Below, one piece after another: positions 1,075 to 51,206 of a stretch of DNA of 64,000 bases. Under the pieces are notes generated by a model. The model saw nothing but the letters and a program-made list of their open reading frames with translations, was not told where the DNA came from and did not search any database. The first letter of the stretch is position 1; each line of letters opens with the position of its first letter. The translations under genes and the position numbers were made by a program. This DNA comes from Blasia pusilla (Eukaryota): NCBI GenBank assembly GCA_050084515.1, contig CM114271.1, forward strand, positions 13,826,001-13,890,000, given 5' to 3'.

Positions 1075-3657
1075 ACATAAACACGCACGATCCCATGCTT
1101 ACTCATGGCATTCAAACAACCAGACGAGAAGTACCTAAATATCTCCAATTGCCCCCATAGTTGATGGTTAGGTCCCTCTAACTCTAGATAGCCATCTATC
1201 CCTACCTACCATCATATATATCTCTTGGACGCTAAGAGCAAAAAGATCAGGTGCTCATGTGGCCCCATCGTCTTCTTTTCATCCATGTCACAGACACAAG
1301 TCAAAATTTAGAACTACGTATTCTATGTACATGTGGAACACATCCATTGTCCCTGAGGAACCCTAGTGAGAGGTGGCGTCCAACATGCCATATGTCATCC
1401 TCTCGAACATCCGTCACAGACTAGCATTGTTGTCGCGACCCTCATGACCAAACAAGTGCCAAGCGGAACATCGGAACATTAGCGGGCTCACGCTAAGATG
1501 GTTTGCGCGTTGGAGTTGTCTCAAAGAGGAGACAAGAGACGAGACGCGAGCGAGGAGTCGCGTTTTAGATGTTATGGTCGCGACTGAGAAACCTGGCCCA
1601 AACGCGGAATGAGACTTGAAGAAGTCGAGTCTAGGAAGTGGGTTGCCAACGGAAAGATCCGGATTTGGAACGCCACTAGCGTTTGAGAGTTTCCGATTGT
1701 ATTTATGACCATAACTTTTAGCGCCAAGATGCGTTTAGAGAAAATAAGGGTGCGTTGGAAAGCTTATAGAGAGCCGGTCCAAACGCACCAAAGATCGCTG
1801 CAATCGCATAAGCAGCGGCCGAGATACAACCCGAAAACGACTGTAAGTGGAGTCGGGTTGAGGGCCACAATGAAGGGTCCGACCCTCTTTTCCCAAAGGG
1901 GAGGGGTTATTGGAGAACCCCAGAAGTACTAGTAAGGGGGAAGGTCTCCGAGAGTGCTTGGAACCCAAACCCCACTTTGGGCGCCGCGGGGCGGCTCAAG
2001 GGCATGGAACGGAACGCGAGTTTGGGCGTTGGGTTGGAAAACCTGCACCAAGTCCATTGAGGTGATTCTAGACATCCCTCTTGGATTTCACACCGCGACT
2101 CAATTACTTGGGTCTCGGTTCGGAACTCACCCAAGGACCGTTGAACAGTTGGGATCGCTAGGCGCGTAAGTGCCGTTTCAGATCCCTGGACTAACCAGGA
2201 AGTCTGTTCCAAGTCTTGAAGGACTTGGCATGTTTTGGAAGCTAGGAACTAAGGAAGGTTGAGCTTGATGAGACGCCGAGTCGAGGACTCGGTGGGTTGG
2301 AACGCTGGTTGGCCCAGACCCGACTAACGAGAGTGCATGTTTGGGTGCAGATCGGCGATGAGTTCGTGACCTACTGAACGCACGCTTCCGCAACACTAAA
2401 GATTGACGTTCAAGGAGAGTAGGGGTGGGACAATTGTGGCTGCACCACGGGCAAAAGCACACAACATACATCGCAAGCCTGCAAGAACTGTTGTTAAGCT
2501 TGGATCAACTGTACCGTCAATGTTAGGAAGGAGACATGGCGCACAGTTACGCACATGATCCTTCCAAACCATATCATCGCGTCCCTCCAATAAGAGAACA
2601 CAAATGGCAAAACCTCACGCACTCTCAAGATAGTGCACCTTGCAGTCACATTCAAGGTCGTGGGTGCCGTCTACTGTAAGTAGACATAGTCTCCCTCATG
2701 AAACCTCCAGATAGTAGATCGATAACTACCTCTCTGAATAGTCGCATACCTCAACGTATTCCGATGTTGTGCAAATGCCAAGTTCTCAAACGCCATGGGC
2801 ATCACTCTCCAAAACAACTAAGTCCTCTGAGAACATGCTCGCATCCATACATCAAGGTCATCAAGGTTCAACACCTCACCAACATCTCAACGGATGGTCG
2901 TAGGTAAATCTAGCTCTCGACCATAAAGCAACACGTACGATGAGAAAGACGCTAAGGATGCTTGCCTGTTGAATTTGTATCCCATTGCCAACCATGGCAA
3001 CTTGAGGTCCCAATCTGCTAGGTGACCTCTATGCAAGCCATACTTACGCAATCCTCTCTTCACCATCTACACAACCCTCTACACTAGTCCATTCGCCTCA
3101 GGATGATCTCGCAAAGTGGTGCGGTGGTCGATCAGTGCCTGATCACGCAAGGCCTGAAACTCCCCTCGAAACTCTGTACCCTAGTCTGTCAACACCTCAA
3201 CAGGTGCGCGGTAATGACTCAACACTCGATCTAGGAAGGCAAATACTACTCCCTCACTCTCTTTTTCAGGCAATGCAACCAACTCTGTCCATTTCGAGAA
3301 GTGCTCGACCATCACCAACACATAACGACTATGGCGCTCCGTCAAAGATAAAGGTCTTGCAAAATCCAAACTCCATCTATAACCTAAACTCATAATCGGA
3401 AGTGGATGCAGTTGTGGAGTCAGAGGATTGAATGATACTCAGACCCGATCACACACCATGCATATGGAAACAAACTGTTGAACGTCAGTATGCATGCCTC
3501 GCCACCAATATTGTATATGGAGCAAGCTATACGTCTACTTCACTCCAAAATAACCCAACTCCTCGTGGGCATGACGCACCAAACATGCTCTCTGTGAAGG
3601 ATGAGGCACTACATGTACTCTACCATCCTCCCAAACTTGCAACACATGTGTCCCCTC
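1075..3657 (-). mobile_element. Degenerate 3' portion of a PHD-integrase Ty3/Gypsy element (integrase core, PHD finger, 3' UTR/PPT, partial B1 repeat); split by a solo LTR
   Basis: ORF 3181-3393 reads WSLDFARP...VEHFSKWTELVAL...VLTD (rve core). The PHD finger CMLC...CDGCSRG*HMAC...WMCSTC spans about 2470-1325 once 1431-2432 is removed. The 3' UTR motif at 1151-1193 is shared with 41862-41905. Confidence 0.85.
1431..2432 (+). mobile_element. Solo LTR, family A (~1.0 kb)
   Basis: TGTCGCGACC...GGGACA termini with a perfect 5-bp TSD ATTGT (1426-1430 / 2433-2437). Homologous to the LTRs at 36725 and 40298. Confidence 0.92.
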
Positions 3658-6016
3658 TGTCATGACCATACAGATTATGTCGTAGAGTATAGTGTGCTAG
3701 TAGAGGCCATACCTTATGTAGGGTTGTAGTGTCTAGGTAGAGATGCGGTTTCATAGATAGGGTTGGGGGTTACTCAGTTGAGGGTGACTTTTCCAGTAGG
3801 GCCCGCTCTTAGGTTGGAGGATATAATGTGGAGTGCACTCAAAGAACTGTTAGTTTTTTGAGTTGAGCTTGTTGTATTGGGAGTTAGCCTTGGTAGTGAG
3901 TAGAGCTCTTGGCTATGGTGGTTCCCGCAAGCTTCAACCTGGATTCTCCCATCGTGGAGTGGGTTTGGCTCGATTGTATGTGATTCTATACGTGTTCTAT
4001 GACAGTAGGTCTTCCATGGATTTCACTCAAAGAACTAGAGTAGATCGATGGTAGCTTCGATTGTGGATCAGTAGGATCTGGTTAGGGTTGATTGTGTACT
4101 CAACCGTGGATGTTCGTGGCTTGTGGCCTATGTTGGAGGTATGAATCTGGTGCATGGTTGATTGGGAAAGAAGAACCTTGCGGAGAGCTTTCCAACGCGC
4201 TTTAGATCACCGGATTTTGTTAAGGGAGTTGGAAGTTATCAAGGATTGAAGATTCTGGTTCGTGTTCGACGGTTTTCCGATGTGGGGGGCTAGGAGTGCG
4301 GAAGCTCCGTTGAAGTTCATCCAGATCGGGTGAGAGGTTCCTATTGCTACCTGTATTGTGATCTCATGTGAAGCTATCTGCTTGAGTGTGTGGAGCGTTG
4401 CAGATTTTTGTGTGCATGAATCTGGGCGGAAGCGTTGTCGGATTTGCGATTCTGGAGGTGTATGGACACCAAGTTTTTCTGATTTTTAGCTCGGAGTACA
4501 GAGCTTGGTTGTAGCTAATTTTTTGTGGAGAGATATCTATGGTGACCAATTGAATTGTGGTTGAAACAGATTCAATTTTGGTTGAGGATTTGTGGAGTAA
4601 TTGCTGATCGAAATTTTGCAGCAGCAGATCGGAGGGGCTGGTTGGTTGATGATTCGCCCATTGTTGGAGATGCCTATCCCGTTAGGAGAACCTTGGTTTG
4701 GCCTCTCTCCATAGAGAAGCATGGCGAAGTGTGGCGATAGGGGCATGTCTTGAGCATTTCTCGGCGTTTCGAGGTTTCGAGGCTTCGAGGCAACTCGTGG
4801 TAGCTCGGGGCGAGTGGGCGTGAGAGGCGGAGCAAGGAGCAAGGAGCAAGGAGCAAGCAAGCAAACTTGCTTGCTTGGGCGTGAGGTAATTTTTTCAGGA
4901 TATGTGAGTTTAGTGTAGCATAACTCGTCACCCATCTTTGGGCTATTCTGCCTGGAAGACGCTTAACTGCTGAGTTCTTAACTATGCCAGTGTACACACT
5001 GGTGTAGCTCATTTGGTGATTTTAGGAGATGTATTAGGCACTTTATGCATCTCGGGTTTTTGGTTGATGAACCTCTAGCGCATAGTACAGTATAGCCTCT
5101 CCATGCATGTGATATTTTCAAGTGCACGAGTCCAACTAGCACGTCATCGACCCGCGGCGGAGTAGCTATTGTGTTAGAATTGTGTGGTGGGTTCTGTGGA
5201 TTCAGGGGGCGCCACATTTGGTGGATTGTGTTACCTTGATTTCCATTTTCCATTGGAGGGTTGTCGTTGGACTTCTTGTGTTTGGATCCCCTCCATCGTT
5301 GCTTCTTGCTTGCGCGCCCATTGTTAGGGTTGACGCTGATTTCCAGAGTAGTTTTATCGCTGTGTGCTACCGGTAGTGAGGCTGGAGTGATGACCAGTAG
5401 ACCGTGGGAGGTTTCTTGTGCTGATGACAGGTTAAGTTGCCTACACCCATAGCTAGTAGAGCTAGAATAGTACAACGACATCGACGTCTTGGTTACTTAG
5501 TGATGATTTGGTGGTGGTGCGGCATCGGCGTTGGTCATCACGGAGCTGTCTGGTGGTCTTGTTGGGGACCGTGGTACAGACAATGGTGGTTTTACATGGA
5601 GTGGATTGAGGTATCGGCTACCTTTTCCACTTTCGACGGTTGATGAAGAGGAGGACGAGGGTGTTCTAAACACAGAGTCTGCTATGTTGTTATCGAGGGT
5701 TGCAGCTCCATTGATTTGGGACATGGATGGGATATACGGGGCCATGAAGGGCCCACAATGATACTCGGGTGCAGTGGGCACCATTGAGTTGGAGGACTTC
5801 ATTCAGGAGTTTGATACGTGGTGTGATATGCAGATGTTGCGGAACGCCACATTGTTTACACCCTTCTTGGCTTGGAAGGGGTTGTTTGAACACTTAGAGG
5901 GACCACCCATGGATGATTACCATGAGTTTAGGAAGGATCATGTTGCTGAGATTGAGGCGTGGAGACAATGTTTCCACGCTATGTGTCTATCACCCATGGT
6001 GGTATTGGTAGTAGTG
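3658..6016 (+). mobile_element. 5' part of a second copy of the DNMT/PHD Gypsy family B (A1 repeat 3658-4025, self-priming site, leader, gag N-terminus); 3'-truncated
   Basis: Colinear reverse complement of about 51180-48855. The gag fragments ...GLRYRLPFPL... and GTIELEDFIQEFDTWCD match ORF 48569-49345. Confidence 0.92.
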
Positions 6017-31881: not shown

Positions 31882-32355
31882 TGTCGTGTGAATCCACATC
31901 ATCATACAACAGACATCGGTGATATACCATACTCACATACATACATAACATAGATGAGAGCATACACAAACACAAGTGTACCACAATTGAAATCCGTGAA
32001 AAACCTACTGTCATAAAACACGTATAGAATCACATACAATCGAGCCAAACCCACTCCACGACGGGAGAATCTAGGTTGAAGCTTGCGGGAACTATCATGG
32101 CCAAGAGCTCTACTCGCTACCAAGGCTAATTCCCAACGCAACAGGCTCAACTCAAAGAACTAATTGTTCTTTGAGTGCACTCCACGCTATATCCTCTAAC
32201 CTAAGAGCGGGCCCTATTGGAAAAGTCACCCTCAACTGAGTAACCCCCAACCCTATGTATGAAACCGCATCTCTACTTAGACACTACGGCCCTACATAAG
32301 GTATGGCCTCTACTAGCACACTATACTCTACGACATAATCCGTATGGTCATGATA
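31882..32355 (-). mobile_element. Solo A+B terminal unit of family B
   Basis: Near-identical to 41310-41783, with a perfect 4-bp TSD CCTT (31878-31881 / 32356-32359). Confidence 0.93.
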
Positions 32356-36724: not shown

Positions 36725-37702
36725 TGTCACGACCCTCATAACCAAATAACACCAAATAGGCGCCAAGCGGAACATCAGAACTCAAGTGGACACACCGTAC
36801 AATGATCGCGCTTTGGAAAGGCTTTTGGAACGTCTCTTGGAAAAGTCCAAGAGACGAAACGCGAAATAGAGTTGTGCATTTCATGCATTAGTGGTCGCAA
36901 CCAAGAAACCTAGACCAAACGCGAGCCAAGACTTAAGATGAGTTGAGTCTTGGAAGGTTGGTTGCCATAGAGGTGAGAACCAATTTTGGAACACGAATAG
37001 CGTTTGGGGAATTTGAATGTATTTTGGACCATGAACTTTAGCCCCAAGATGAATTTGGGACAAATAATAGTACCTTGATAAGCTTATCTTGAAACGCTTC
37101 CAATGCACCAAAGATCTTAGCAAACGCATAAGTACAGACTGAGATATTGGCCAAAAATGACTGTGAGAGCAATCGGGTTGAGGGCCAATTGGAGAGGCCC
37201 AGGTGTCTTTCCCTAAATGTAGGGAACCCTGGAGATCCCCAGAAGAACTAGTAAGGGAGGAGTGTCTCCAAGATGTCTTGGAACACGAATTCCCACTTTG
37301 AGCACCAAATGGCGTCTCAGAGGTACGGGATGGAACGGGAGTTTAGCCTGGTAACTCGAAATCCAAACGTGATCCAAGAGAGTGGACTTTGTATGCCACA
37401 CTTGGATTCCGACCCAAGATTCCCTTTGTGCGAGTCTCGATTAGGGACTCATTAGATGTCCATCGGACTGTTAGAACCACCATGCGCGAAACGTCATTTG
37501 AGGTTTCTCAACCGACGAGAAAGTATGTCCCAAGTCTTTCGAGACTTGCTTGTGTTGTAAACCGCGAAACTAGGAAGGTTGAGCTTGATGAGAGACCGAG
37601 ACGAGAACTCGGAAAGTTAGCCCGCTGATTGATCCAAGACCCGACTAACTAGAGTGCGTATTTAGATGCAGATCAACTTTGAGAGCGTGACCTATTGAAC
37701 GT

Positions 37703-38931
37703 TGTCGTGTCGAGAGCCTTTCTTTGAGTAAGGGCGGGCCTTCTAGTTACGGCGTACGTGATCAATGCAAGGTGAACTCTCTAAGAAGTTCTCCTTTTTC
37801 AATAAAAAAATTATTATGTATACTCTCCATTCTCTTACGACAAGTATCACAAATGGAATTGTCGAGGCGATCACTTCTTCGTAACATCGGACCCTGAAAT
37901 TCTTAATTATAAAATCCCTATAAACTACTTTACATTTGTACACGAGGAAGATAGCACAACTAGTGTTAAATCCTACTTTAGTAGGCCTATTGACGTCCAT
38001 GGATCGCTATATAAGGACATACAAAGTACAATCCCATGTTCTTTCGTGTATGACGATAGGAAGAATCAACAGAGTTGGAGATTGCATGACCTGGTTCATT
38101 AACTTCTCCCCAAAGTGATAAACTAAATAGCAAGTGAACCAGTGCCTATCTACAAAGAGTACCTTGACATGGTAAGGATTGAGGAAATGAAAGTAGGACA
38201 CAACTCGTGCTCCATCTCTATTCATGCTTGAAAGACATTACCTACCCTCCTCAAGAATGGGCTTTGACGAAATTATTCTACCAAGAAGGGTAATCCACTC
38301 CTCTAAGGTGACAAGCTTCTCATCTCCACACATACCACACTCTAGAAACCTCTCGAAGAATAGATCATGATCAAGTTACTCTCCCAAGAAGGGTGATCCA
38401 CTCTCATTGGAAGAGCAAGCAATCTCAAAGCCATACACTTGAGAATGACACGAGAGACTCAAGATGTGAAATAGAAGGTGATGAACCCTTTCCTTGAAGG
38501 CCCCTCCTCTTTATATACTCATGAGGGATCCATAAGAGTACGAAATAGAGCTAATCTTATCTTGTGCCACATAACTACCTCTCAAGGCTTAGCCAATCAT
38601 ATTTTGACACAAGTAGATTTCCTCTTATCTCTTCAAAAATATTCTCTTTTATCCACTTGATATTTTCCAAATTACCCCAACTAACCTAGCCACCAACCAA
38701 GACTACTTTTACTTTTCATTAAAGCATCAACCTCACTACTTTACTTTTACAAAGTTATCTTTTATTTATTACCTCTTTTCTTAAAGTTGGGCCCACATAA
38801 AAGAGACACCATAAAGAGGTTTAAACATGGGAATTTTCTTTTCCTAAGCTAATTTACTTAATACTAATAAAACTCTATCTAACACTTAATGAGGAAAGAG
38901 TTTACACACTGGTTGATTTTACTATACGAAA
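37703..38931 (-). mobile_element. Solo LTR-like unit, family C, inside the family A 5' LTR
   Basis: TGTCGTGTCG...TATACGA(C>A)A termini with TSD ACGT/ACGC. Removing it restores GAACGCACGC as seen in the other family A LTRs. Near-identical to 43471-44744. Orientation is inferred. Confidence 0.88.
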
Positions 38932-38988
38932 ACGCACGCTTTTGCAACAACAAAGATTAACGTTCAAGGAGAGTAGGCGCACGGCACG

Positions 38989-39002
38989 TGGTATCAGAGC
39001 CA
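38989..39002 (+). other. Primer binding site (initiator tRNA-Met) of family A
   Basis: TGGTATCAGAGCCA two nt after the LTR end CA. Confidence 0.95.
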
Positions 39003-39136
39003 ATCCTTGGTGAGCAGAACTTGGGATCGTAGAAGATGTGGACGTTTGAGAAGAACTCAAGGTAGTTGGAAGGCTGCGATGCTCAAGCACGAACACAAGA
39101 GACAAGGAGGAGATTTGAGAAAGCGAGGACTCGCAA

Positions 39137-40200
39137 ATGGCAACCAAGGGCGAAGAACCAAGGAAGCCGCAAGTCAAAGAAAAAAATCCGAGAGACGAAT
39201 CAATGACGAACCGTGAGCCAGAGGAGGAGACAGCAACTCCCAAAGTGCCGAGTCCCAGACATGAGGATGTTCCAAACGCAAATCTTTCCGTGGGGCCTTC
39301 GGCTCCAAACTCAAACGACCTGGCCTTTTATATCCAAATGATGGATTTGATGAAGGTGATGGTGGACCAGATGGCCAAACAAAGCAAGGTGATCGTAGAA
39401 CCCAAGTTGAATGGAGCCTCTAGTTCCAGAAAGAAGCTTTGTAAGACAAATTTTCCAATGCCATTCACAAGAATGGGGTATTCTCAAAAAGTGAGCGAGT
39501 TTCTAACGAAACTCAAACTTTATTTTGAAGCGCAAAAGGCAGATGAGCAAGACAACGTGATTGTAGCAGTCATGTTTCTGAAGGATCATGCTCTCTACTG
39601 ATGGACGGCTCACCTTAAAGAACATCTAGGCCATGGAAGAACTTTGAGTTGGGAAGATTTCAAGGGGTTGATTGGTAACCAATTCACTCCGGAATATCAA
39701 GAGTATCGCGATGGCATGGAGTTTATTAGGTTGTGCCAAAGCGGATCCCTTAGCGCTTATGTGTGAGAGTTCAGTGCACACATGAGCTCACTTTCCACAT
39801 ATGAGTTTACAAAGAAGATGATCTTCTTAAGTGGACTCAAACCGAGCGCCAAAAAGGCCCTCTTTCGTATGCATCACATTCCACCGATGTGCGCAGAACT
39901 TCTGAGGCTAGCGGAGCGGATAGGGGACGATGAAGTCCAAAACCAAAAACCCTTTGAGCAGAAAAGTTTTTCTAAGTTACCAAAAAACAAAGGGACATCC
40001 AAGAGGGTTTGGAATGGGGGTGAGTGCGACCACGAAGGGTCTCTTGCCCCAGCGGCGAAATGAGTGGAACTCTATGCAAAGCCAAGAGGGTCGCCGTTCT
40101 CAAAGTCAACAAATGCCAAAGTGATTTGTTACAATTGTGGCGAACCCGGGCATATGGCTAAGGAATGTGTGAAGCCCAAGGTTAGTAATTCAAGTATGAT
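39137..40200 (+). pseudogene. Family A gag (in-frame stops)
   Basis: Retrotransposon gag motifs FLKDHALY*W and LSWEDFK, and zinc knuckle CYNCGEPGHMAKEC. PPT AAGGAGGGGTGAG at 40285-40297. Confidence 0.85.
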
Positions 40201-42021
40201 TGCGTTTGTTGCTAAGCACTTATCCGCCGGCGGCTCGGAACTTAACATTAAAAAGGTTTGCTTTGATGAGGACATCAACCTTCTAAGGAGGGGTGAGTGT
40301 CGCAACCCTCATAACCAAACAACACCAAATAGGCGCCAAGCAGAACATGAGAACTCACGTGGACTCACCCTGCGATGATCGCCCTTTGGAAAGGCTTTTG
40401 GAACGTCTCTTGGAAAAGTCCAAGAGATGAAATGCGGGACAGAGTTGTGCATTTCATGCATTAGTGGTTGCAACCATGAAACCTAGACCAAACACGAGCC
40501 AAGACTTGAGATGAGTTGAGTCTTGGAAGGTTGGTTGCCAAAGAGGTGAGAACCAATTTTGGAACGCGACTAGCGTTTGGGGAATTTGAATGTGTTTTGG
40601 ACCATGAAGTTTAGCCCCAAGATTAATTTGGGACAAATAAGAGTGTGTTGGTAAGCTTATCTTGAAACGCCTCCAACGCACCAAAGATCTCAGCAAACGC
40701 ATAAGTACAGACTGAGATATTGGCCGAAAATGATTATGAGAGCAATCGAGTTGAGGGTCAATTGGTGAGGCCCGGGTGTCTTTCCCTAAATGTGGGGAAC
40801 CCTGGAGATTCCCAGAAGAACTAGTAAGGGAGGAGTGTCTCCAAGATGTCTTGGAACACAAATCCCCACTTTGAGCATCAAACGGCGTTTCACAGGCACG
40901 GGATGGAACGGGAATCTGGCGTTGGAACTCAAAACCCAAACGTGATCCAAGGGAGTGGACTTTGTACGCCACACTTGGATTCCAACCCAAGATTCACTTT
41001 GTGCGAGTCTCGGTTAGGGACTCATTGGATGTCCATTGGACAGTTGGAACCGCGAGGCGCGAAACGCCGTTTGACGTTCTTGAACCAACTAGAAAGTCTG
41101 TCCCAAGTCTTTCAAGACTTGCCTGTATTATAAACTGTGAAACTAGGAAAATTGAGCTTGATGAGAGGCCCAGATGAGAACTCAAAAAGTTAGCCCGTTG
41201 ATTGATCCAAGACTCAACTAACCAGAGTGCGTGTTTGGATGCAGACCAATATTGAGAGCGTGATCTACCGAACGCACGCTTCCGCAACAACAAAAATTAA
41301 GGTTCAAGGTGTCGTGTGAATCCACATCGTCATACAACATACATCGCTGACATACCATACTCACATACATACATAATATAGACGAGAGCATACACAAACA
41401 CAAGTGTACCACAATTGAAATCCGTGAAAGACCTACTGTCATAAAACACGTATAGAATCACATACAATCGAGCCAAACCCACTCCACGATGGGAGAATCC
41501 AGGTTGAAGCTTGCGAGAACCACCATAGCCAAGAGCTCTACTCACTACCAAGGCTAACTCCCAACGCAATAGGCTCAACTAAAAGAACTAACTGTTCTTT
41601 GAGTGCACTCCACACTATATCCCCCAACCTAAGAGCGGGCCCTAGTGGAAAAGTCACCCTCAACTGAGTAACCCCCAACCCTATGTATGAAACCGCATCT
41701 CTACCTAGACACTACGGCCCTACATAAGGTATGGCCTCTACTAGCACACTATACTCTACGACAGAATCCGTATGGTCATGACAACTGTCGTGCGAATCCA
41801 CATCATCATACAACATACATCGCTGACATAAGCATCCAAAAACACAAGTTTACCACAACTCGCCCCCTTAACTAGCGGTTAGGTCCCTCTAACTCCCAGG
41901 TAGCCATATACATCTACTACATGCTTGGATGCACGAATCAGAAGGCCGGGTGTTAGGTTGCCCCATCGTTAGTCGCACATCAGTAATCCATATCATGCAA
42001 AGATCAAGTCATCTACCTCTC

Positions 42022-43470
42022 CTAAGTACATCGAGGACAAACCCACCTTCTAGTAGAAACAACTTCCATACATGGAGTTAAACACATCATGTGCCAACCC
42101 CTAGAACACTGGTCACACACAAACATACGGGCTGCGTTACCAGCAGACCCACACAACATGCACCTCAAGCTAGCACGTATCATGGCTAAGCTTGGGTCAA
42201 CAGTACCATCCACATTTGGAAGATGACATGGCGCACAATTACGCACATGGTCCTTCCAAACAACTCCATCACGACCCTCCAACATGAGAATTCCATAATC
42301 TAACACCTCGCGCACTTGTAAAATAGTGCGGCCTGCCGTCACATCCAACGTTGTCGGTGTAATCTGATGCAAATAGACATAGTCCCCCACATGGAACCTA
42401 CAAATCAATGGTCGATAACCTCCACCTCGAATGGTTGCATACCGCAACGTATCCCTGTGTTGAGAAATGGCAAGATTCTCAAAGGCTGTTGGCATAACTC
42501 TCCGAAAAGAGCTCGCCGCACGAGAACACACTTTCATCCACATCTCTCGGGTCATCAAGGTTCACCACCTCACTAGACTCCGGACCAATTGTCTGGCGGC
42601 AAGTCCGGATCTCGCCGTATAATGTAAAAATAAGGTGAGAAGGAAGCCAAGGATGTTTGGCGACTGAACCTATACCCCATGGCTAACCATGGCAACTGAA
42701 TATCCTAGTCTCCAAGATGCCCCTTCTGTAGGCCATACTTGCGCAATGCCCTCTTCACCGTCTGAACCAAACCAAACCTCAGCCAAACCATCCGCCTCTG
42801 GATGATCTGGAGACGTGGTCTGATGATCAAACAACGCCTTGTCACACAAGACTTGAAACTATGTACCCTGGTCGGTCAGCACTTCAGCTGGTGCACCAAA
42901 ATGACTAAGCACTCTATCAAGTTACGCATACGCCGTTCCCTCACTTGCCTTGTCAGGTAATGCCACCAACTCAATCCACTTGGAGAAGTGCTCCACCATC
43001 ACCAACACATATCGATGATGTCGTACAGTCAACGGTTACGGTCCCGCAAAGTCCACACTCCAACGATAACCCAACCCCATAATAGCCAAGGGGTGTAACT
43101 GTGGTGTAGGGGCATTGAATGATACCCTCACCCAGTCACAAACCATACAATGTGACACCAACTGCTGCACCTGAGTATGCATGCCACGCCACCAATACTG
43201 ACCAAGGAGTAAGCTATACGTACGCTTTACCCCAAAATGTCCCAACTCCTCATGGGCATGTCGCACAATGCGCTCTCTCTGAGCCAAATGCGGCACTACT
43301 TGTACTCTACCATCCTCCCACACACAGAGAATATGTGTTCCCTCCAATCGATACCTCTTAGCACATTGAAGAACATGGTCTCGCTCCTTGGCACTCACTA
43401 TGCCTTGCACCCTACTGGTCCGTAGGAACTCCAACACCAAACCATCATCATGAATATCACGTTGATCCGT
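42022..43470 (-). pseudogene. Integrase (HHCC, DDE core, SH3-like C-terminus) with C-terminal PHD finger
   Basis: HAHEELGHFG...CMVC, WSVDFAGP, VEHFSKWIELVAL, VLTDQGT, FHVGDYVYL, and the C4HC3 motif CMLC...CDQC..GWHMMC...WVCPRC. Confidence 0.93.
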
Positions 43471-44744
43471 TGTCGTGTCGAGAGCCTTTCTTCGAGCAAG
43501 GGCGGGCCTTCTAGCTACGGTAGATGCGGTCGATGCAAGGTGAACTCTCTAAGAAGTTCTCCTTTTTCAATACAAAATTATGATGTACACTCTCCATTCT
43601 CTCACGAGAGGTATCACAAATGGAAGTGCTGAGGTGATCACTTCTTCGTAACATCGGATCCCAAAATTCCTAACTATAAAATCCCTATAAACTATTTTAC
43701 GCTTGTACACGAGGAAGATAGCACACCTAGTATTAAACCCTACTTGAGCAGGCCTATTGACATCCATGGGTCGCTATATAAGGACATACAAAGTACAATC
43801 CCATGTCCTTCCATACGTGACGATAGGAAGAATCATTGGAGTTGGAGATTACATGACCTGATTCATGAACGCCTCCCCAAAGTGATAAACTAAATATCGA
43901 GTGAACCAGTGTCTATCTACAAAGAGTACCTTGACATGGTATGGATTGAGGAAACGAAAGTCGGGCACAACTCGTGCTCCACCCCTATCCTTGCTTGACA
44001 GACATTCTTTTCTCTCCTCAAGAATGGATTTTGGCAGAATTATTCTCCCAAGAGGGGTAATCCACTCTCATTGGGGAAGTAACAAGCCAAAACATTCACT
44101 ATTTTAGTATGACTAAACTCCTCTGAGGTGACAAACCTCTCATCTCCCCACACACTTACACCACACTCTAGAAACCTCTCGAAGAATAGACCATGATCAA
44201 GTTACTCTCCCAAGAGGGGTGATGCACTCTCATTGGAAGAGCAAGCAATCCCAAAGCCATACACTCAAGAAAGACACGACAGACACAAGATGTGAAATAG
44301 AAGGTGATGAACCCTTGAAGGTCTCTCCTCTTTATATACTCACAAGGGATCCACAAGAGTACGAAATAGAGCTTATCTTATCTTGTGCCACATGGCTTCC
44401 TCTCAAGACTTAGCCAATCACATTTTGATACAAATAGATTTCCTCTTATCTCTTCCAAAATATCCTCTTTTACCCACTTGGTATTTTCCAAATTACCCCA
44501 ACTAACCTAGCCACCAACCAAGACTACTTTTTCTTTTCATTAAAGCAACGACTTTACTTTTATAAAGTCATCTTTTATTTATTACATCTTTTTCTAAAGT
44601 TGGGCCCGCATAAAAGAGGCACCATAAAGAGGTTTAAACATGGGGATTTCCTTTTCCTAAGCTAATTTACTTAATACTAATAAAACTCTATCTAACACTT
44701 AACGAGGAAAGAGTTTACACATTGGCTGATTTTACTATACGACA
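43471..44744 (-). mobile_element. Solo LTR-like unit, family C, inside family B pol
   Basis: TGTCGT...ACGACA termini with a perfect 4-bp TSD CCGT. Excision restores the in-frame GDGGTDQRD. Orientation is inferred. Confidence 0.92.
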
Positions 44745-44929
44745 CCGTACCACCATCTCCAACCTTAAGATCTGAAGGCTGGCCATCTACCCTATGATTG
44801 GAGTAAGATTTCATGTGGTCCTCCATACTAGAGTCCACCCCTAACCAACATAAAAAGGCGGATGCATGCCAACCTGGCACCACCTCCTCATCAACCTCGC
44901 CATGCCATCTAGCCCCAGTTGCATCCTCT

Positions 44930-46047
44930 TGGCTAGTACATGGGTTCCTACTCAACCCATTAGCATCCATGTTGGCAACTCCAGGTCTATATACCACCTG
45001 GAAGTCATACTCATGTAAGATAAGAGCCCATTGTGCAAGCTTCCCTGTAAGCTTGTCAGACTCCATCAACCACTTGAGCGGCTGGTGATCAGTAACAAGG
45101 GTAAACTGTATGCCAAACAAATAATACCCAAAGTGTGCCACAGCCCACACTACTGACAAACACTCTCCCTCATATGAACTGTAGCGCGACTCCGCTGCAT
45201 TATTCGAACGACTTGCATAGGCCATCATAAACTCCATGTGCTCATCATCATGTTGGGTCAACACCGCTCCAAGTCCCAACTTACTCCAATCAGCGTGTAA
45301 CTGAAATGGGCACCCTCTGATAGGTCTCCTCAAGATAGGGGCCGCCACCAACTGGGCCTTGAGCTCCACAAAAGCTCTCTCCTGATCATCTCCCTAGTGC
45401 CACTCCTGATCTGATTTCAACAATTGGTTCAAAGGCTTTGCCATAACACTAAATCCCTTCACATACCTCCGATAGTAGTTCGCCAATCCCATGAATGCCC
45501 GAACTCTACTCACATCTACCGAACGAGGAATAAGTGCAATAGCCTCCACCTTTGCTTGCTGAACTCCCAAACCACCTGGATAGATCACATGACCCAAGTA
45601 CTCAACATCCTCATGGAAGACCTTACACTTTCCTGGATGCAAACGTAGACCATGAGCTTTCAACCGCTCAAACACAATGTGCAAATGTATCTGATGCTCC
45701 TCCACCGTGTTACTTAACACCAAGATATCATCAATGTAATACCGAACAGAATCCAACCTTGTTAGGATCCTGTCCATCACTCTTTGAAACTCGGCAGGTG
45801 CATTCTTCAACCCAAAGGGTAAGAATTTCCACTGGTACAAACAATCCTTGCCATGAGAGTTGACACCCCAAAATGTTGTCTTGGCCTTGTCACTCTCTTG
45901 AATCGGCAACTGATGGTATCCTGCCCGAAGATCCAAAGTACTAAAAATCTTTGCCTGTCCCACCACATCAAAGATCTCCTCAGGTGTAGGCATGGCATAC
46001 CTATCAGCCTTGGTCTGCCGATTGATAGGACGGTAATCTCCACACAT
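44930..46047 (-). pseudogene. Gypsy reverse transcriptase and RNase H
   Basis: MCGDYRPIN, FSTLDLRAGYHQ, LPFGLKNAP and YIDDIL (RT). FQLHADWSKLGLGAVL, YSSYEGECL and LVTDHQPL (RNase H). Confidence 0.96.
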
Positions 46048-46489
46048 CCGCCTATTCGTATACCGGGTCCAACCAAAGCACCCAAATCCTTCATGCTAAA
46101 GGCAAAACAACTCCTATAAGCACGTAGGAACTGTGTCAAGCGTCGATTCTCACCTCCCGTAAGCTTGGGCCCAAGTAATGGCTCCCAAGTTTCCTCCACT
46201 GGCACACTAGAGAGAGAGGACGATGCCATTGGCTGCTACGCAACCCCCTCACAAGATAGTACACCCTTAGCTACACCATCACCTGAGCAAATAACTCCTC
46301 CACCATCATGAGCAACCAACTCCACATGCCCAGCCATTACATCCCATTTACTCCAAGGATGCAAAATAATACTCTCCTCGCCCCCATCCGATGCCTCTAC
46401 CGTCCCGGTAGCCATCGTGCTCATCACAAGGGGTGGAAGACCCACAAACATAGTCCGGAGTCGACGCTGCTCGGCCATACCAAGACTCA

Positions 46490-47430
46490 AAATCCAAGTC
46501 AAAAAATTCAAGTCCATGGCCTGACCCAACACATCACGTCGTGAAGCCTCAGAAATGGAAGCAACCGCTGTCACACCAGTAGCAAATCCCATCGCACGCT
46601 CTCTCTCATCAACGTTAGGCTCCACCAACTGTGGCACATGAGAATCCCATACAAGCTCGGGACCACCTTCCCTGTAGGCATGTGACAAGGGAAAACTCAA
46701 AAATGTGGGTAGTGCCATCCTAGGCTGGCCCACACGGTTCACCACTGCCATAGATGACTGATCAATAACCCTCACCACCTGAGAAAGTCGCCCAGTATCC
46801 AAGATACTATCCTTTGTAAGGCAAGGATCCGCTGCCTTTGCATCATATGCTCGACGTATAACCTCCTAGGCAACAAGTTTGTCCACCACAAGCGTGGGCG
46901 ATGTGCACGCTGAGCCAACTCACGCTGCATCCAACAACACCGCTGGTCCAATCCAAGACCGCACCTCATGAACACTCGCCATCATCCAGTTCCGAGTGTC
47001 ACCCAACAATGGAACATTCTCCAGAATGTAAGCCGGAGCACATGCCTGATGAACCTGAAGATGTCGTAACACCCGTAACATCTCCCAAAAAAATCGAGAC
47101 CTAGGATCGTGTAATCCCTCACCACGACCAGCACGTGTATGACCCTAACATGGCCGTCCAGCAATCACCAAATCCACAGGACCAACCCTCTCAAGGTCCT
47201 GCGCCCCCAACAATGCAATGTGTGACGGCAAAGCACGCTGGTACCCACGAATAGCTGATGGCGGCAACAACTCAGGATATCTCCGCATTAACTGACCAAT
47301 ATTTCGGGATGAGCCTCTCTGGGCTGTCTCATCTCGCTCCACATATACGTATCTCCGCACAGGAATAACGGTTTGCAACACTGCAGCCAAACCAGTGCTA
47401 ATCCCACCAAAGAGATCTAACACACAAATG
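46490..47430 (-). pseudogene. DNMT3-like C5 cytosine DNA methyltransferase domain in pol
   Basis: Motif I VLDLFGGIST, II YVYVERD, IV GPVDLVIAGRPC(Q>*)G, VI YILENVP, VIII LDAA*VGS/RAHRPRLWWTNL, IX ERERAMGF and X RRDVLGQAMD, in canonical order. Confidence 0.92.
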
Positions 47431-48018
47431 CCCTCCGGCGGATACTGCCATACAATAGGTGTAGTGGACTCCTACTTCTAGTGCCAACTGGACTAGAAGT
47501 AGGAGTCCGCCATGGGGCCTCCTCTTCCTCGTGAGGTATAACAGCCTCACACCAAGCCTCCTCCACTAGGCGATCAGCCTCTTGCCGTAGTGCACTGCCT
47601 GAACTCCAAAGTGGCACATCCAACAATGAGGATGCCACTACTGCAAAACTAGGGACTTCCTCTACCTCCTCATGCACAGGAGAATACATAGCATAAACAT
47701 TACTCTCCAAAAAATCTCCTCGCCAAGTGACTACTCCACTAAAACTAGCCACAGATGCTAACACCGTTGGGGAAGACCCTCCTGGTCGAGCTCCATAAAT
47801 AAATCTCACAGGAACTTGGCTCATACGTCCATCTCCGGACTGCCAACCAGGTCTATAAGACGTTGTCTCAGTCCAGTAATCCATCTGAAAACCCATATAG
47901 TAGCCAACTTCTGCTCCAACTGCTCAATCATGGCAGCCATAGCTGACTCTATCGTAGTGGTAGGGGTAGCCACCGTAGGCTCTCCAACCACTGGTCCACC
48001 TCTACCACCTCTACCACC

Positions 48019-49345
48019 TCAGCCTCTCGGAGCTACTCCACCACGGCCGCGGCTTGATCTCAACTCTGGATGAAGATCAAAGCAACGCTCTCGAGGATGA
48101 TCTGGTCTCCCGCAATGATCACACTGAGTTGGGGCCGACTGAGGCCCATCCTCCAAAGTCCGTCTCCCATCCTCTTGGGGACAAAACTTCCTAACATGAT
48201 CACCTCCACATGTCCAACATGATTGTCCTTGCTGCGGGGCAGCAAATGAAGGCAATGGTCTCTACACAAGTGTCCCTCTAGAACCTGACTGAGGTCGTGT
48301 GTACCCCCCATAACTCCCGCTACTACTACCACCACCACTACTACGAGACTGTGAGGTGGGCTGCTGAACACGAGAAGTAGTAGTTGTATCCCTACTGAAT
48401 GCAGATGTCACCACTCTCTCCTTCACAATGTTAAGCTCAATCTTCTCAGATAGAGCAAACACATGGGTCAATGTGGATGAATCATCACTCATAAGAGTAG
48501 CATCATGTACCCTGCGGCGCAACTCTCTGTCCAAGATCCCATACCAAAATTGACTGCTCGAGCCTCGATCACACCTGGGTAATCGAAATCAAGCGTCGCA
48601 TACGAGTGTATGCCTCACGAAGACTCTCACCAATCTTTCGCTCAAATTCCTGAAGACTCCTTAACTTCTCTGTCTTCACTCCCTGATAGTTCTTCTTCAA
48701 CCTCTTGAAGAACTCTGCAACCGGGCTGAACGATGGTGGGGCACTAGTACCTCCACTAGTACTCCCATTGGTACCTCCATGGGTACCTCCACTGATACCC
48801 CCGCTCCGGCTCATACTCGTACCACTCAACGTCGGGCTGGCTGGCATAGTAGGAGCACTACTACCAATACCACCATGGGTGATAGATACATAGCCTGGAG
48901 ACCAATATTGTCTCCACGCCTCAATCTCAGCAACATGGTCCTTCCTAAACTCATGGTAATCATCCATGGGTGGTCCCTCCAAGTGCTTAAACAACCCCTT
49001 CCAAGCCAGGAAGGGTGTAAACAACGTGGCGTTCCGCAACATCTCCATATCACACCACGTATCAAACTCATGCATGAAGTCCTCCAACTCAATGGTGCCC
49101 ACTGCACTCGAGTATCGACGTGGGCTCTTCATGGCCCCATATATCCCGTCCATGTCCCAAATCAATGGAGCTGCAACACTCGATAACAACGTAGAAGACT
49201 CGGTGTTTGGAACACCCTCGTCCTCCTCTTCATCAACCGTCGGAAGTGGAAAAGGTAGCCGATACCTCAATCCACTCCATGTGAAACCACCACTGTCCGC
49301 ACCACGATCCCCAACCAAACCACCAGACAACTCCGTGATGACCAA
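48019..49345 (-). pseudogene. Family B gag with two zinc knuckles (frameshifted)
   Basis: ORFs 48569-49345, 48262-48534 and 48019-48255. GESLREAYTRM, CWTCGGDHVRKFC and CDHCGRPDHPRERC. Confidence 0.88.
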
Positions 49346-51206
49346 CGCCGATGCCGTACCACCACCAAATTACCACCACTAAGTAACCAAGTGACGTTGA
49401 TGTCGCTGTACTATTCTAGCTCTACTAGCTATGAGTGTAGGCAACCTAACATGTCATCAACACAAGAAGCCTCCCACGGTCTATTGGTCATCACTCCAGC
49501 CTCACTACCGATAGCACACAGGAGTAACACTACTCTGGATATCAACGTCAACCCTAACAATGGGCGTGCAAGCAAGAAGCAACGATGGAGAGGATCCAAA
49601 CACAGGAAGTCCAACGACAACCCTCCAATCGCAAATGGAAATCAAGGTAACACAATCCACCAAACGTGGTGCCCCCTGAATCCACAGAACCCACCACACA
49701 ATTCTAACCCAATAGCTACTCCGTCGGGTCGATGATGTGCTAGTCGAACTCGCAGCACCTGAAAATATCATCTGCATGGAGAGGCTACACCGTACTATGC
49801 GCTAGAGGTCCATCAACCAAAAACTTGAGATGCATAAAGCGCCTAACACATCTCCAAACAGCACCAAATAAGCTACACCAGTGTGTACACAGGCATAGTT
49901 AAGAACTCTGCAATTAAGCGTCTTCCAGGCAGAATAGTTCAAAGATGGGTGACCAATTATGCAACACTCAAATCACAAATCCTGCAAAAACTGCCTCACG
50001 CCCAAGCAAGCAAGCTTGCTTGCTTGCTCCTTACTCCGCCTCTCACGCCCACTCGCCCTGAGCTACCACAAGTTGCCTCGAAGCCTCGAAGCCTCAAAAC
50101 GCCGAGAAATGCTCAAGACATGCCCCCTTCGCCACGCTTCTCCATGCTTCGCTATGGAGAGAGGCCCAACCAGGGCGCCCCCAACGGGATAGGCGTCTCC
50201 AACAACAGACGAGTCACCAACCAACCAGCCCCTCCGATTATTACTCCACAAATCCTCGACCAAAATTGAATCTGTTCCGACCAAAATTCAATTGACCACC
50301 ATAGTTATCTCTCCACAAAAAAATCAGCTACAACCAAGCTCTGTACTCCGAGCTAAAAATCAGACAAACTTGCTGTCCATACACCTCCAGAATCGCAAAT
50401 CCGGCAGCGCTTCCGCCCAGATTCATGCACGCAAAAATCCGCAACGCTCCACACACTCAAGCAGATAGATTCACATGAGATCACAATACAAATAGCAACA
50501 GGAACCGCTCACCCAATCTGAACTTCAACAGAGCTTCCGCACTCCAAGCTCTCCACATCAAAAAACCGTCGAACACGAACCATAATCTTCAATCCTTGAT
50601 AACTTCCAACTCCCTTGACAAAATTCGGCGATCTAAAACGCGTTGGAAAGATCTCAGCAAGGCGCTTCTTTCCCAATCAACCACGCACCAGATTCCCACC
50701 TCCAACATAGGCCACAAGCCACGAACATCCACGGCTGAGTACACAATCAGCCCTAACCAGATCCTACTGATCCACAATCGAAGCTACCATAGATCTACTC
50801 TAGTTCTTTGAGTGAAATCCATGAAAGACCTATTGTCATAAAACACGTATAGAATCACATACAATCGAGCCAAACCCACTCCACAATGGGAGAATCCAGG
50901 TCGAAGCTTGCGGGAACCACCATAGCCAAGAGCTCTACTCGCTACCAAGGCTAGTTCCCAACGCAACAAGCTCAACTAAAAGAACTAACTGTTCTTTGAG
51001 TGTTCTCCACACTATATCCCCCAACCTAAGAGCGGGCCCTACTGGAAAAGTCACCCTCAACTGAGTAACCCCCAACCCTATGTATGAAACCGCATCTCTA
51101 CCTAGACACTGCGGCCCTACATAAGGTATGGCCTCTACTAGCACACTATACTCTACGACATAATCCGTATGGTCATGACAAAGGAGAGTAGGCGCACGAC
51201 ACATAT

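Follow-up and report, generated by a model that had tools for sequence, protein, structure and literature searches.

Retroviruses and long terminal repeat (LTR) retrotransposons are held to obey a simple rule, under which a linear cDNA is inserted by its two tips, these being both the substrate of the integrase and the edges of the LTRs, and circular forms are seen as dead ends. A locus in the liverwort Blasia pusilla raises the question of how an element could be built and propagated if its integrase ends lay elsewhere. The locus is found in a stretch of 64,000 nucleotides of contig CM114271.1 (assembly GCA_050084515.1, positions 13,826,001 to 13,890,000 of the forward strand), referred to here in its full length as the window and numbered from its first letter. 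Positions 41310-51180 of the window are occupied, on the minus strand, by a Ty3/gypsy-type element that carries a single repeat (A1) at its 5' end and, at its 3' end, the series B1, a two-nucleotide spacer (NN), A2 and B2. The answer favoured here is that the element probably has a permuted LTR, in which the two ends used by the integrase stand side by side inside the LTR made by reverse transcription, and integration opens this internal site. The same degree of confidence covers, as one joint judgement on the whole explanation, the assignment of the element to a streptophyte lineage of Ty3/gypsy elements that has a DNA methyltransferase in pol and a DDE integrase ending in a PHD finger.

Anatomy of the element and of its relatives

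The argument depends on the following features of the window.

51181-51184, minus strand: 5' copy of the target site duplication (TSD), CCTT, also supported by empty-site paralogues
50813-51180, minus strand: A1, 368 bp, TGTCATG...TTTCA, the sole repeat at the 5' end
50976-50987, minus strand: site in A1 (TAGTTCTTTTAG) that can pair with the 12 nt following A1; putative RNA 5' end and self-primer
50801-50812, minus strand: primer binding site (PBS) of the self-priming type (CTCAAAGAACTA), flush with the A1 end
48019-49369, minus strand: gag region, with two CX2CX4HX4C knuckles seen by eye in the open reading frame (ORF) at 48019-48261
46467-47429, minus strand: degenerate C5 cytosine DNA methyltransferase (DNMT) module in pol
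44842-46062, minus strand: reverse transcriptase (RT) and RNase H (RVT_1, 3e-32; RT_RNaseH, 3e-32)
43467-44744, minus strand: foreign insert, a 1274-bp TGTCGT...CACGACA unit plus one copy of its TSD (ACGG)
42028-43485, minus strand: integrase (IN; H2C2 zinc finger and DDE core, broken) with a C-terminal PHD finger
41859-41869, minus strand: polypurine tract (PPT), AAGGGGGCGAG; relatives have a G-run in the same place
41786-41858, minus strand: B1, 73 nt, directly after the PPT, ending ..CACGACA, with a private 32-nt deletion
41784-41785, minus strand: GT, the 2-nt spacer that separates the CA of the B end from the TG of the A start; putative internal integrase site
41416-41783, minus strand: A2, 368 bp
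41310-41415, minus strand: junction base A (41415) and B2 (41310-41414), which ends ..CACGACA at the right end of the element
41306-41309, minus strand: 3' copy of the TSD, CCTT
31882-32353, minus strand: solo A+B copy, with TSD AAGG and the same A/B junction as the full copy
3658-6016, plus strand: second copy, 3'-truncated, starting flush with A and with the same A/PBS junction as the full copy

The minus-strand order is A1, PBS, gag-DNMT-RT-RNase H-IN-PHD, PPT, B1, GT, A2, B2. A1 and A2 are 95.9% identical over 368 bp, and the match between B1 and B2 consists of two blocks (45 nt at 96% and 28 nt at 89%), with 32 nt absent from B1. The exact word at the B1/A2 junction (..CACGACA-GT-TGTCATG..) occurs once in the window. 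The ends of the element are proven by the CCTT duplication on both sides together with two paralogous uninterrupted targets, both of which read ..CCTACTCTCCTTGAAC.. (at about 38935-39005 and about 2380-2450). This layout and these ends had been proposed from the letters of the stretch alone, and every piece of that original prediction was found in place. It had also described the second copy as starting with A only and the solo copy as A+B with a TSD. Both descriptions are accurate; the second copy is 90% identical to element positions 1-2325, and in the solo copy the first TG is mutated to TA. Within the window, the A/B junction is identical in 2/2 copies and so is the A/PBS junction (2/2).

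The further claim that the layout is a family trait was examined in metagenome contigs, which were scanned with the 179-residue C-terminus of the IN/PHD protein. This gave 80 loci at 45-80% identity, selected independently of the junction, among which independent insertions were counted by their 3' flanks; a scan of viral contigs with the IN/PHD protein found no relative. The long form, in which the PPT is followed by B-NN-A, a second B and the flank, is present at 33 of the 80 loci (14 independent insertions). A short form, in which a single B separates the PPT from the flank and A2-B2 are absent, is as common (30 loci, 21 independent insertions). Three more loci (two independent insertions) have a snap-back form, in which B-NN-A is followed by the PBS word and an inverted A, three are broken within B and 11 lack 3' sequence. 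In the younger clade the independent insertions comprise 18 short, 5 long and 2 snap-back forms, and in the older clades 3 short and 9 long. At the 5' end, the flank is joined to A and A to the PBS in all 14 independent cases (10 in the main clade, two in other clades and two in the window), and the mirror permutation, A-B-NN-A-PBS...PPT-B, is found in 0/14. The abundance of the short form, the snap-back form and the missing mirror form all go beyond what had been predicted.

It had been proposed to test whether TSDs always flank A1 and B2 in other copies and whether the 2-nt junction is invariant. Four-bp TSDs border the element, at the start of A1 and the end of B2, in 5/5 independent full-length long copies, being perfect in L029 (AAGG), L036 (CATA) and L058 (CATA) and matching at three of four positions in L076 (ATTA/ACTA) and L079 (AACA/AATA). 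Of the full-length short copies, 4/5 likewise have TSDs, outside the start of A and their only B end (L004 ACTA, L016 TGTT, L021 TACA and L030 ATTA; L045 is unclear). The spacer between ..ACA and T(G/A)T.. measures 2 nt in 17/17 independent B-NN-A junctions (14 long, two snap-back and the window copy), and it is the length that is invariant, as the letters vary (GC, GT, AC, AT, TC).

These counts bear directly on the simplest explanation, namely that the window holds a private rearrangement of one copy (a tandem LTR, a nested insertion or an assembly error) in an otherwise ordinary Gypsy family. The copy is indeed old, nested in another element and burdened with a foreign insert, all of which would favour such an accident. 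However, other assemblies have the layout in 14 independent insertions, whose protein identity spans 45-80%, the 69 loci at which the 3' end can be read include no copy with two equal LTRs, and the junctions are carried by RNA and DNA reads from independent runs. This explanation is already refuted, and its remaining probability is negligible.

Reverse transcription and the B-NN-A unit

The original prediction regarded the unit that stands between PPT and PBS, B-NN-A, as the LTR in the classical sense. The edges of this unit are sharply placed. B1 starts 0-3 nt from the G-run PPT in every clade. Long and solo copies alike have an A/B junction at which the last base ahead of the PBS abuts the first base behind the PPT with nothing added, the sole exception being L009/L012, where the first 5 nt of B2 are absent. 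The joining base of the main clade, at a CAG site, is either G or A, which amounts to a transition.

The two B copies also change together. The identity of B1 to B2 tracks that of A1 to A2 within elements (93.8/92.3, 93.9/90.8, 92.2/89.7, 92.3/90.6 and 87.5/79.1), a comparison that the original prediction had proposed. B1 and B2 of the window element have three derived columns in common with the solo B, there is no column in which only B2 and the solo differ, and among five independent long copies there are no fixed differences between B1 and B2. Judged from these alignments, B1 and B2 evolve in concert. It had been cautioned that the 32 bp missing from B1 might mean that B2 is separately templated from the transcript, in the manner of Ngaro elements. 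B1 is, however, full length in RNA reads and in all 36 related loci that have B1-NN-A (33 long and three snap-back). The gap is private to the window copy, and the caveat therefore falls.

The 5' edge of minus-strand synthesis appears to be set by an unusual primer. The 12-nt word that follows A1 does not resemble a tRNA-type PBS; its complement lies in A, 127-175 nt before the A end. In three clades the words and their partners are CTCAAAGAACTA/TAGTTCTTTGAG, AAAATCCAAAAA/TTTATGGATTTT and TATAGAAAAACT/AGTTTTTCTAGA, such that the partner changes with the word (covariation). Pairing is complete (12/12) in L029 and in the second copy of the window, and reaches 11/12 in the full window copy, L016, L039, L058 and L076. 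Minimum-free-energy folds of the predicted R-U5-PBS RNA close with the PBS stem. The pattern is suggestive of Tf1-type self-priming, which would fix the A end as the end of U5; A1 would then represent the 3' part of the RT-defined LTR, that is, the promoter region, R and U5. Another candidate PBS, of the TGG type and placed 24 nt after A1 (TGGTAGCTTCG), was dropped, as none of the 24 nt is present at the A/B junction and it is the flush 12-mer that covaries.

Self-priming of this kind has precedents. Excerpted accounts describe, for Tf1/Sushi and Tcn1 elements, a PBS that is likewise not tRNA-like and is complementary to an LTR site at about the point where the RNA should start, and REXdb predicts self-priming for the plant Tcn1 clade (PMC6317226). 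The present family differs from these in having a PHD finger in place of the chromodomain, together with the DNMT module. It differs from Tf1 further in that, as far as the same excerpts go, Tf1 has equal LTRs with the integrase ends at their edges (PMC6317226), which is not so here.

The snap-back copies give a second view of the cDNA terminus. They are known from their 3' ends only (L002 1283-1801; L013 3361-3882; L015 1412-1933, of which L013 and L015 are one insertion and have flanks that differ from those of L002). Each reads A2, the 12-nt PBS word and A in reverse complement, which starts near position 169, runs to position 1 and closes with ..CATGACA, before unrelated flank. They look like an integrated by-product specific to self-priming elements, which could originate when a plus strand with the copied self-primer at its 3' end folds back on its own R start. 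These copies support the A end plus PBS as the right tip of the cDNA, and also support the acceptance by the integrase of an A-type end as a right end.

Transcription of the family was followed in stranded raw reads of two runs, X22 and X23, with counts given for each in that order. The family is transcribed in the sense direction. Reads join the PPT to full-length B (29+48), full-length B through NN to the A start (44+78), and the A end to the PBS (22+10). A pile-up of fragment starts at 41624, present in X22 only, was not used as an RNA end; it adjoins a fixed C>T difference at 41623 and may reflect alignment clipping.

As side observations, one RNA variant skips 42495-44774, with nine other letters between (16+31 reads; no DNA contig), and there are strong loose RNA ends at 44744, 46057 and 46059 that are not splice-like. 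Because of this variant and these loose ends, the expressed copies are considered to include deletion derivatives or chimeric transcripts.

Collectively, because of the concerted evolution of B1 and B2, the exact abutment at the A/B junction and the covarying self-priming PBS, the identification of B-NN-A as the RT-defined LTR, with the integrase site inside it, is well supported, and it is this that forms the core of the interpretation. With respect to the PPT-to-PBS unit, then, the original prediction has held up.

The order A1...B1-A2-B2 is otherwise known from PAT, Toc, Ngaro and VIPER elements, where, in the portions of the literature drawn on here, the internal B/A junction also mirrors the joined termini (PMC4157794; PMC7192593). 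These elements differ from the window family, which has no tyrosine recombinase and instead possesses a DDE integrase with an H2C2 finger, TG..CA ends and 4-bp TSDs, along with a 2-nt junction spacer and a PPT and PBS that flank B-NN-A.

The likeness in layout invites the alternative that the family replicates in a Ngaro/DIRS-like way. The transcript would run from a point within A1, across A2 and into B2, so that B2 and the A/B junction would be copied from RNA in each cycle and B1-NN-A2 would serve only to restore the missing tips; there would be no circle and no joining, and the integrase would process the tips of a linear A...B-NN-A-B cDNA. The near-invariance of the A/B junction is consistent with such copying, the directionality of the route explains why the mirror form is absent (0/14), and short forms would arise whenever the integrase picked the first B end. 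RNA also covers the whole 3' region; the depth over B2 is uninformative about transcripts that pass A2, because reads with full-length B1 map onto B2. What this route does not account for is that B1 and B2 share lineage-specific changes and have no fixed differences, which separate inheritance would not give, and that the junction corresponds exactly to the PBS-side base joined to the PPT-side base. Moreover, the covarying self-priming PBS sets the 5' end of the minus strand at the A end, not beyond B2, where no primer site was found, and the snap-back copies have a plus strand that ends in A and the PBS. On balance a Ngaro/DIRS-like route is decidedly unlikely.

Proposed integration from within the LTR

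If the permuted-LTR reading is correct, plus-strand synthesis would start at the base after the G-run PPT, which is the start of B, and minus-strand synthesis at the Tf1-like self-priming PBS that abuts the end of A. The ends joined by the integrase, TGTCRTG.. and ..CAYGACA, would lie in inverted orientation, facing each other across exactly 2 bp inside the LTR. A nick on the 3' side of both CAs would leave two processed ends of the standard kind, in which CA-OH is recessed and the 5' strand overhangs by 2 nt; this is a matter of geometry and not of observation. As the ends lie inside the LTR and not at its edges, integration would therefore have to open the LTR at an internal site. Indeed, in none of the copies examined do the predicted cDNA tips, at the start of B and the end of A, serve as integrase ends.

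Abutted inverted ends across a short spacer are likewise present at the circle junctions of the IS3 family. Integrases of retroviruses are described, in excerpts concerning spumavirus and HIV-1, as cutting 2-LTR circles at their palindromic LTR-LTR junction, from which processed ends result (PMC1180852; PMC1905944). There too, inverted ends abut across a short spacer and nicking of both strands gives two processed ends at once. The difference is that the retroviral junction exists only in a by-product circle, the linear tips being the normal substrate, whereas here the abutted ends are present in every LTR.

The two common forms would then follow from which ends are paired. In the short form, A-PBS...PPT-B, the A start on the PBS side would be paired with the B end on the PPT side, which would be possible either on a one-LTR circular intermediate of reverse transcription or on a linear two-LTR cDNA. 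The long form, A-PBS...PPT-B-NN-A-B, would be expected if the PBS-proximal site were opened in a molecule whose outer cDNA ends, the A end and the B start, had been joined, either as a 2-LTR circle or as an equivalent product of cutting and then joining. Joining of the cDNA tips would best explain B2 of the long form, because of the concerted evolution of the B copies and their exact abutment. Only the long form would keep an intact B-NN-A that templates U3 and R for the next round, and therefore the long form would be the master and the short forms would be dead on arrival. A stronger version of this scheme, in which the DDE integrase obligately uses the internal LTR site, insertion of a master copy needs circular or end-joined cDNA, as in IS3-family circles, and short copies are shed as a regular by-product, is offered tentatively, with a likelihood slightly short of even.

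Short copies could also have a less exotic origin. Integration might always produce the long form, and short copies might result from later unequal recombination between B1 and B2, just as the solo A+B would result from recombination between A1 and A2. B1 and B2 would be identical at insertion and lie only about 300-450 bp apart, and recombination would preserve the TSDs that are seen in 4/5 short copies. Against this, the B of short forms is not more diverged than that of long forms (0-10 private differences compared with 2-10), the three least diverged B copies, with 0, 1 and 2 private differences, all belong to short forms, and the more diverged clades hold fewer short forms (3 short and 9 long, compared with 18 short and 5 long). 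The origin of the long form would also be left unexplained. Later deletion as the source of the short copies is consequently regarded as unlikely, yet it is the most probable of the alternatives considered.

Long forms, for their part, might arise if a linear B-NN-A...B-NN-A cDNA recombined through both of its A copies with an existing solo A+B. This would yield A...B-NN-A-B with the TSD of the solo and would favour the long form over its mirror, A (about 340 bp) being longer than B (about 110 bp); a solo A+B is present in the window. However, a solo would be required at every site, and the origin of the solo and the conserved 2-nt spacer would remain unexplained. In addition, A1-A2 and B1-B2 divergences agree within elements, an agreement that would be broken by a B2 derived from an older solo. 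Such recombination is very improbable as the general source of long forms.

A number of points weigh against the permuted-LTR reading or restrict its scope. The order of events, the existence of any circle, the choice of the LTR that opens and the reason for the missing mirror form are deduced from sequence, not observed, and the cDNA ends, RNA start and poly(A) site of the model are likewise predicted. No pile-up of RNA reads at the predicted start is listed for X22 or X23. Self-primer pairing is 10/12 in L030 and only 9/12 in L004/L005, which is weak and no better than in shuffled sequences. In four of 14 copies (L036, L079, L021 and L043) the site was not recovered, the best match lying elsewhere in A and again being no better than shuffles. 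A 2-LTR circle opened at random predicts the mirror form as often as the long form, and the mirror is absent from 14 independent 5' ends; set against the six long copies whose 5' ends are known, this absence would have a chance of roughly 1 in 64 under symmetry. The circle route needs an added asymmetry, none of which is shown, and is plausible but unproven. One possible reason for such asymmetry is that the PBS-proximal LTR would be double-stranded long before the distal one, and so would perhaps be cut first. The derivation of short forms by deletion between B1 and B2 would keep the TSD, and the data argue against it only weakly. Finally, every copy examined, including those at all 80 loci, is degenerate and none is proven active, and few samples contributed to the metagenome loci, which probably represent a single host species or a small number of them.

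Coding content, kinship and genomic setting

All coding parts of the window element are interrupted by stops, and the gag region has no Pfam match. In the Pfam search the DNMT module, which is of the DNMT3 type, reaches PF00145 at E 0.005, below the cut-off, and 46467-47429 aligns (tblastn) to two proteins that both carry PF00145, P0001 and P0025. In L036 no DNMT match was found in the 467-aa ORF upstream of RT, and the module is perhaps not in every relative. Integrase_H2C2 and PHD score in the window integrase, the region aligns over 503 residues to the intact relative P0025, and rve is detected in relatives (L036, at 1.4e-12, and also L016 and L021), where H2C2 and PHD score as well. The predicted rve DDE integrase is in this sense borne out for the family, while the gene in the window copy is itself broken. 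No match to a tyrosine recombinase (PF00589) was obtained in 40 window ORFs from both strands or in 11 relatives' ORFs, and the precomputed domains of relatives list rve and no recombinase.

The order RT - RNase H - integrase in pol is that of Ty3/gypsy elements (Metaviridae). Of the further features standard for that group, the TG..CA termini and a short TSD are present, but two equal LTRs with integrase ends at their edges are not. The RT of the window element shares 84% identity with a protein of Marchantia polymorpha that has DNMT, RT and RNase H domains, and 47-49% with proteins of Klebsormidium nitens, and relatives with the set DNMT, RT, RNase H, IN and PHD are listed from Marchantia, Calypogeia, Closterium and Klebsormidium. 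By these protein matches, the DNMT-carrying Gypsy lineage spans streptophyte algae and liverworts.

The closest relative in print, as far as the consulted portion of that paper allows, is KnitGypsy-Dnmt3 from Klebsormidium nitens, a Gypsy element with a Dnmt3-type methyltransferase inside pol and a DIRS-like layout; the legend to Figure 4 of the paper gives it a DIRS repeat structure together with Gypsy domains (de Mendoza et al. 2018, PMC5890265). The window element differs in being of the liverwort type, as the RT identities attest. The text of the paper gives no junction, spacer, TSD, PBS/PPT anatomy, short form or mechanism, and its supplements may show the repeats (PMC5890265). The novelty of the layout that the original prediction implied is thus lost, DIRS-like repeats on a DNMT Gypsy having been in print since that 2018 legend; the anatomy and the proposed mechanism do not appear there. 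In the literature consulted, no other description of a DDE-integrase element with split direct repeats was found, nor any account for such elements of the 2-nt spacer, TSDs, PPT/PBS placement, self-priming, short and snap-back forms, the missing mirror form or an occurrence of the liverwort type.

Differences between the window copy and the family reads and contigs are mostly transitions (C>T, G>A, A>G, T>C). This excess, and the G/A joining base at CAG, fit deamination of methylated cytosines in silenced copies.

The copy lies in a nest of elements. The host of the insertion is an unrelated plus-strand LTR element at 36725-41309 plus 51181-51201, with LTRs of about 1 kb (D', about 36725-39000; D, 40298-41309 continuing at 51181-51201), a tRNA-Met-type PBS (TGGTATCAGAGCC) after D', an interior of about 1.3 kb and a 5-bp TSD, CATAT. 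Its features resemble those of a conventional LTR element that is non-autonomous. Insertion of the studied element took place 21 nt inside D, measured from the end of the host 3' LTR, in the opposite orientation, and two further D copies in the window run uninterrupted through the insertion point.

The foreign 1.27-kb unit sits between RNase H and IN, flanked by its own 4-bp TSD (ACGG), and other family copies lack it, as attested by a joint from 43466 to 44745 in DNA contigs and RNA reads. A second copy of the unit, 85% identical, interrupts D' at 37700-38937 with the TSD CGTT. This unit probably belongs to a sister family and is a solo of the A+B type, an assignment made because its end motif (TGTCGT...CACGACA) and TSD length match those of the studied family. 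A reading of 37700-38937 as part of the pol of a sister element whose 1-kb LTRs were conventional was rejected, the segment being a copy of the 1.27-kb unit.

Elsewhere in the window, a pol fragment at 2458-3657 (minus strand) is 72% identical to the integrase region of the element and stops within the PHD-coding part; it abuts a D-type LTR (1575-2415, minus strand), and the second family copy is inserted in it. At least four LTR-type families are nested in the window. A tRNA scan of the window found none.

If the permuted-LTR reading is true, the family would be a natural case in which an internal LTR junction is the obligatory integration site. It would also form a bridge between LTR elements and the split-repeat elements that rely on tyrosine recombinases, having the same layout with a different enzyme. 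LTR finders that expect two equal LTRs would miss or mis-date the family, and its short forms would not be recognised as LTR elements at all. As the elements carry a DNA methyltransferase and a PHD finger, the biology of the family bears on the epigenetic conflict between transposons and their hosts. Since the transcripts come from a liverwort with a genetically tractable model among its relatives, the proposed route could be tested directly.

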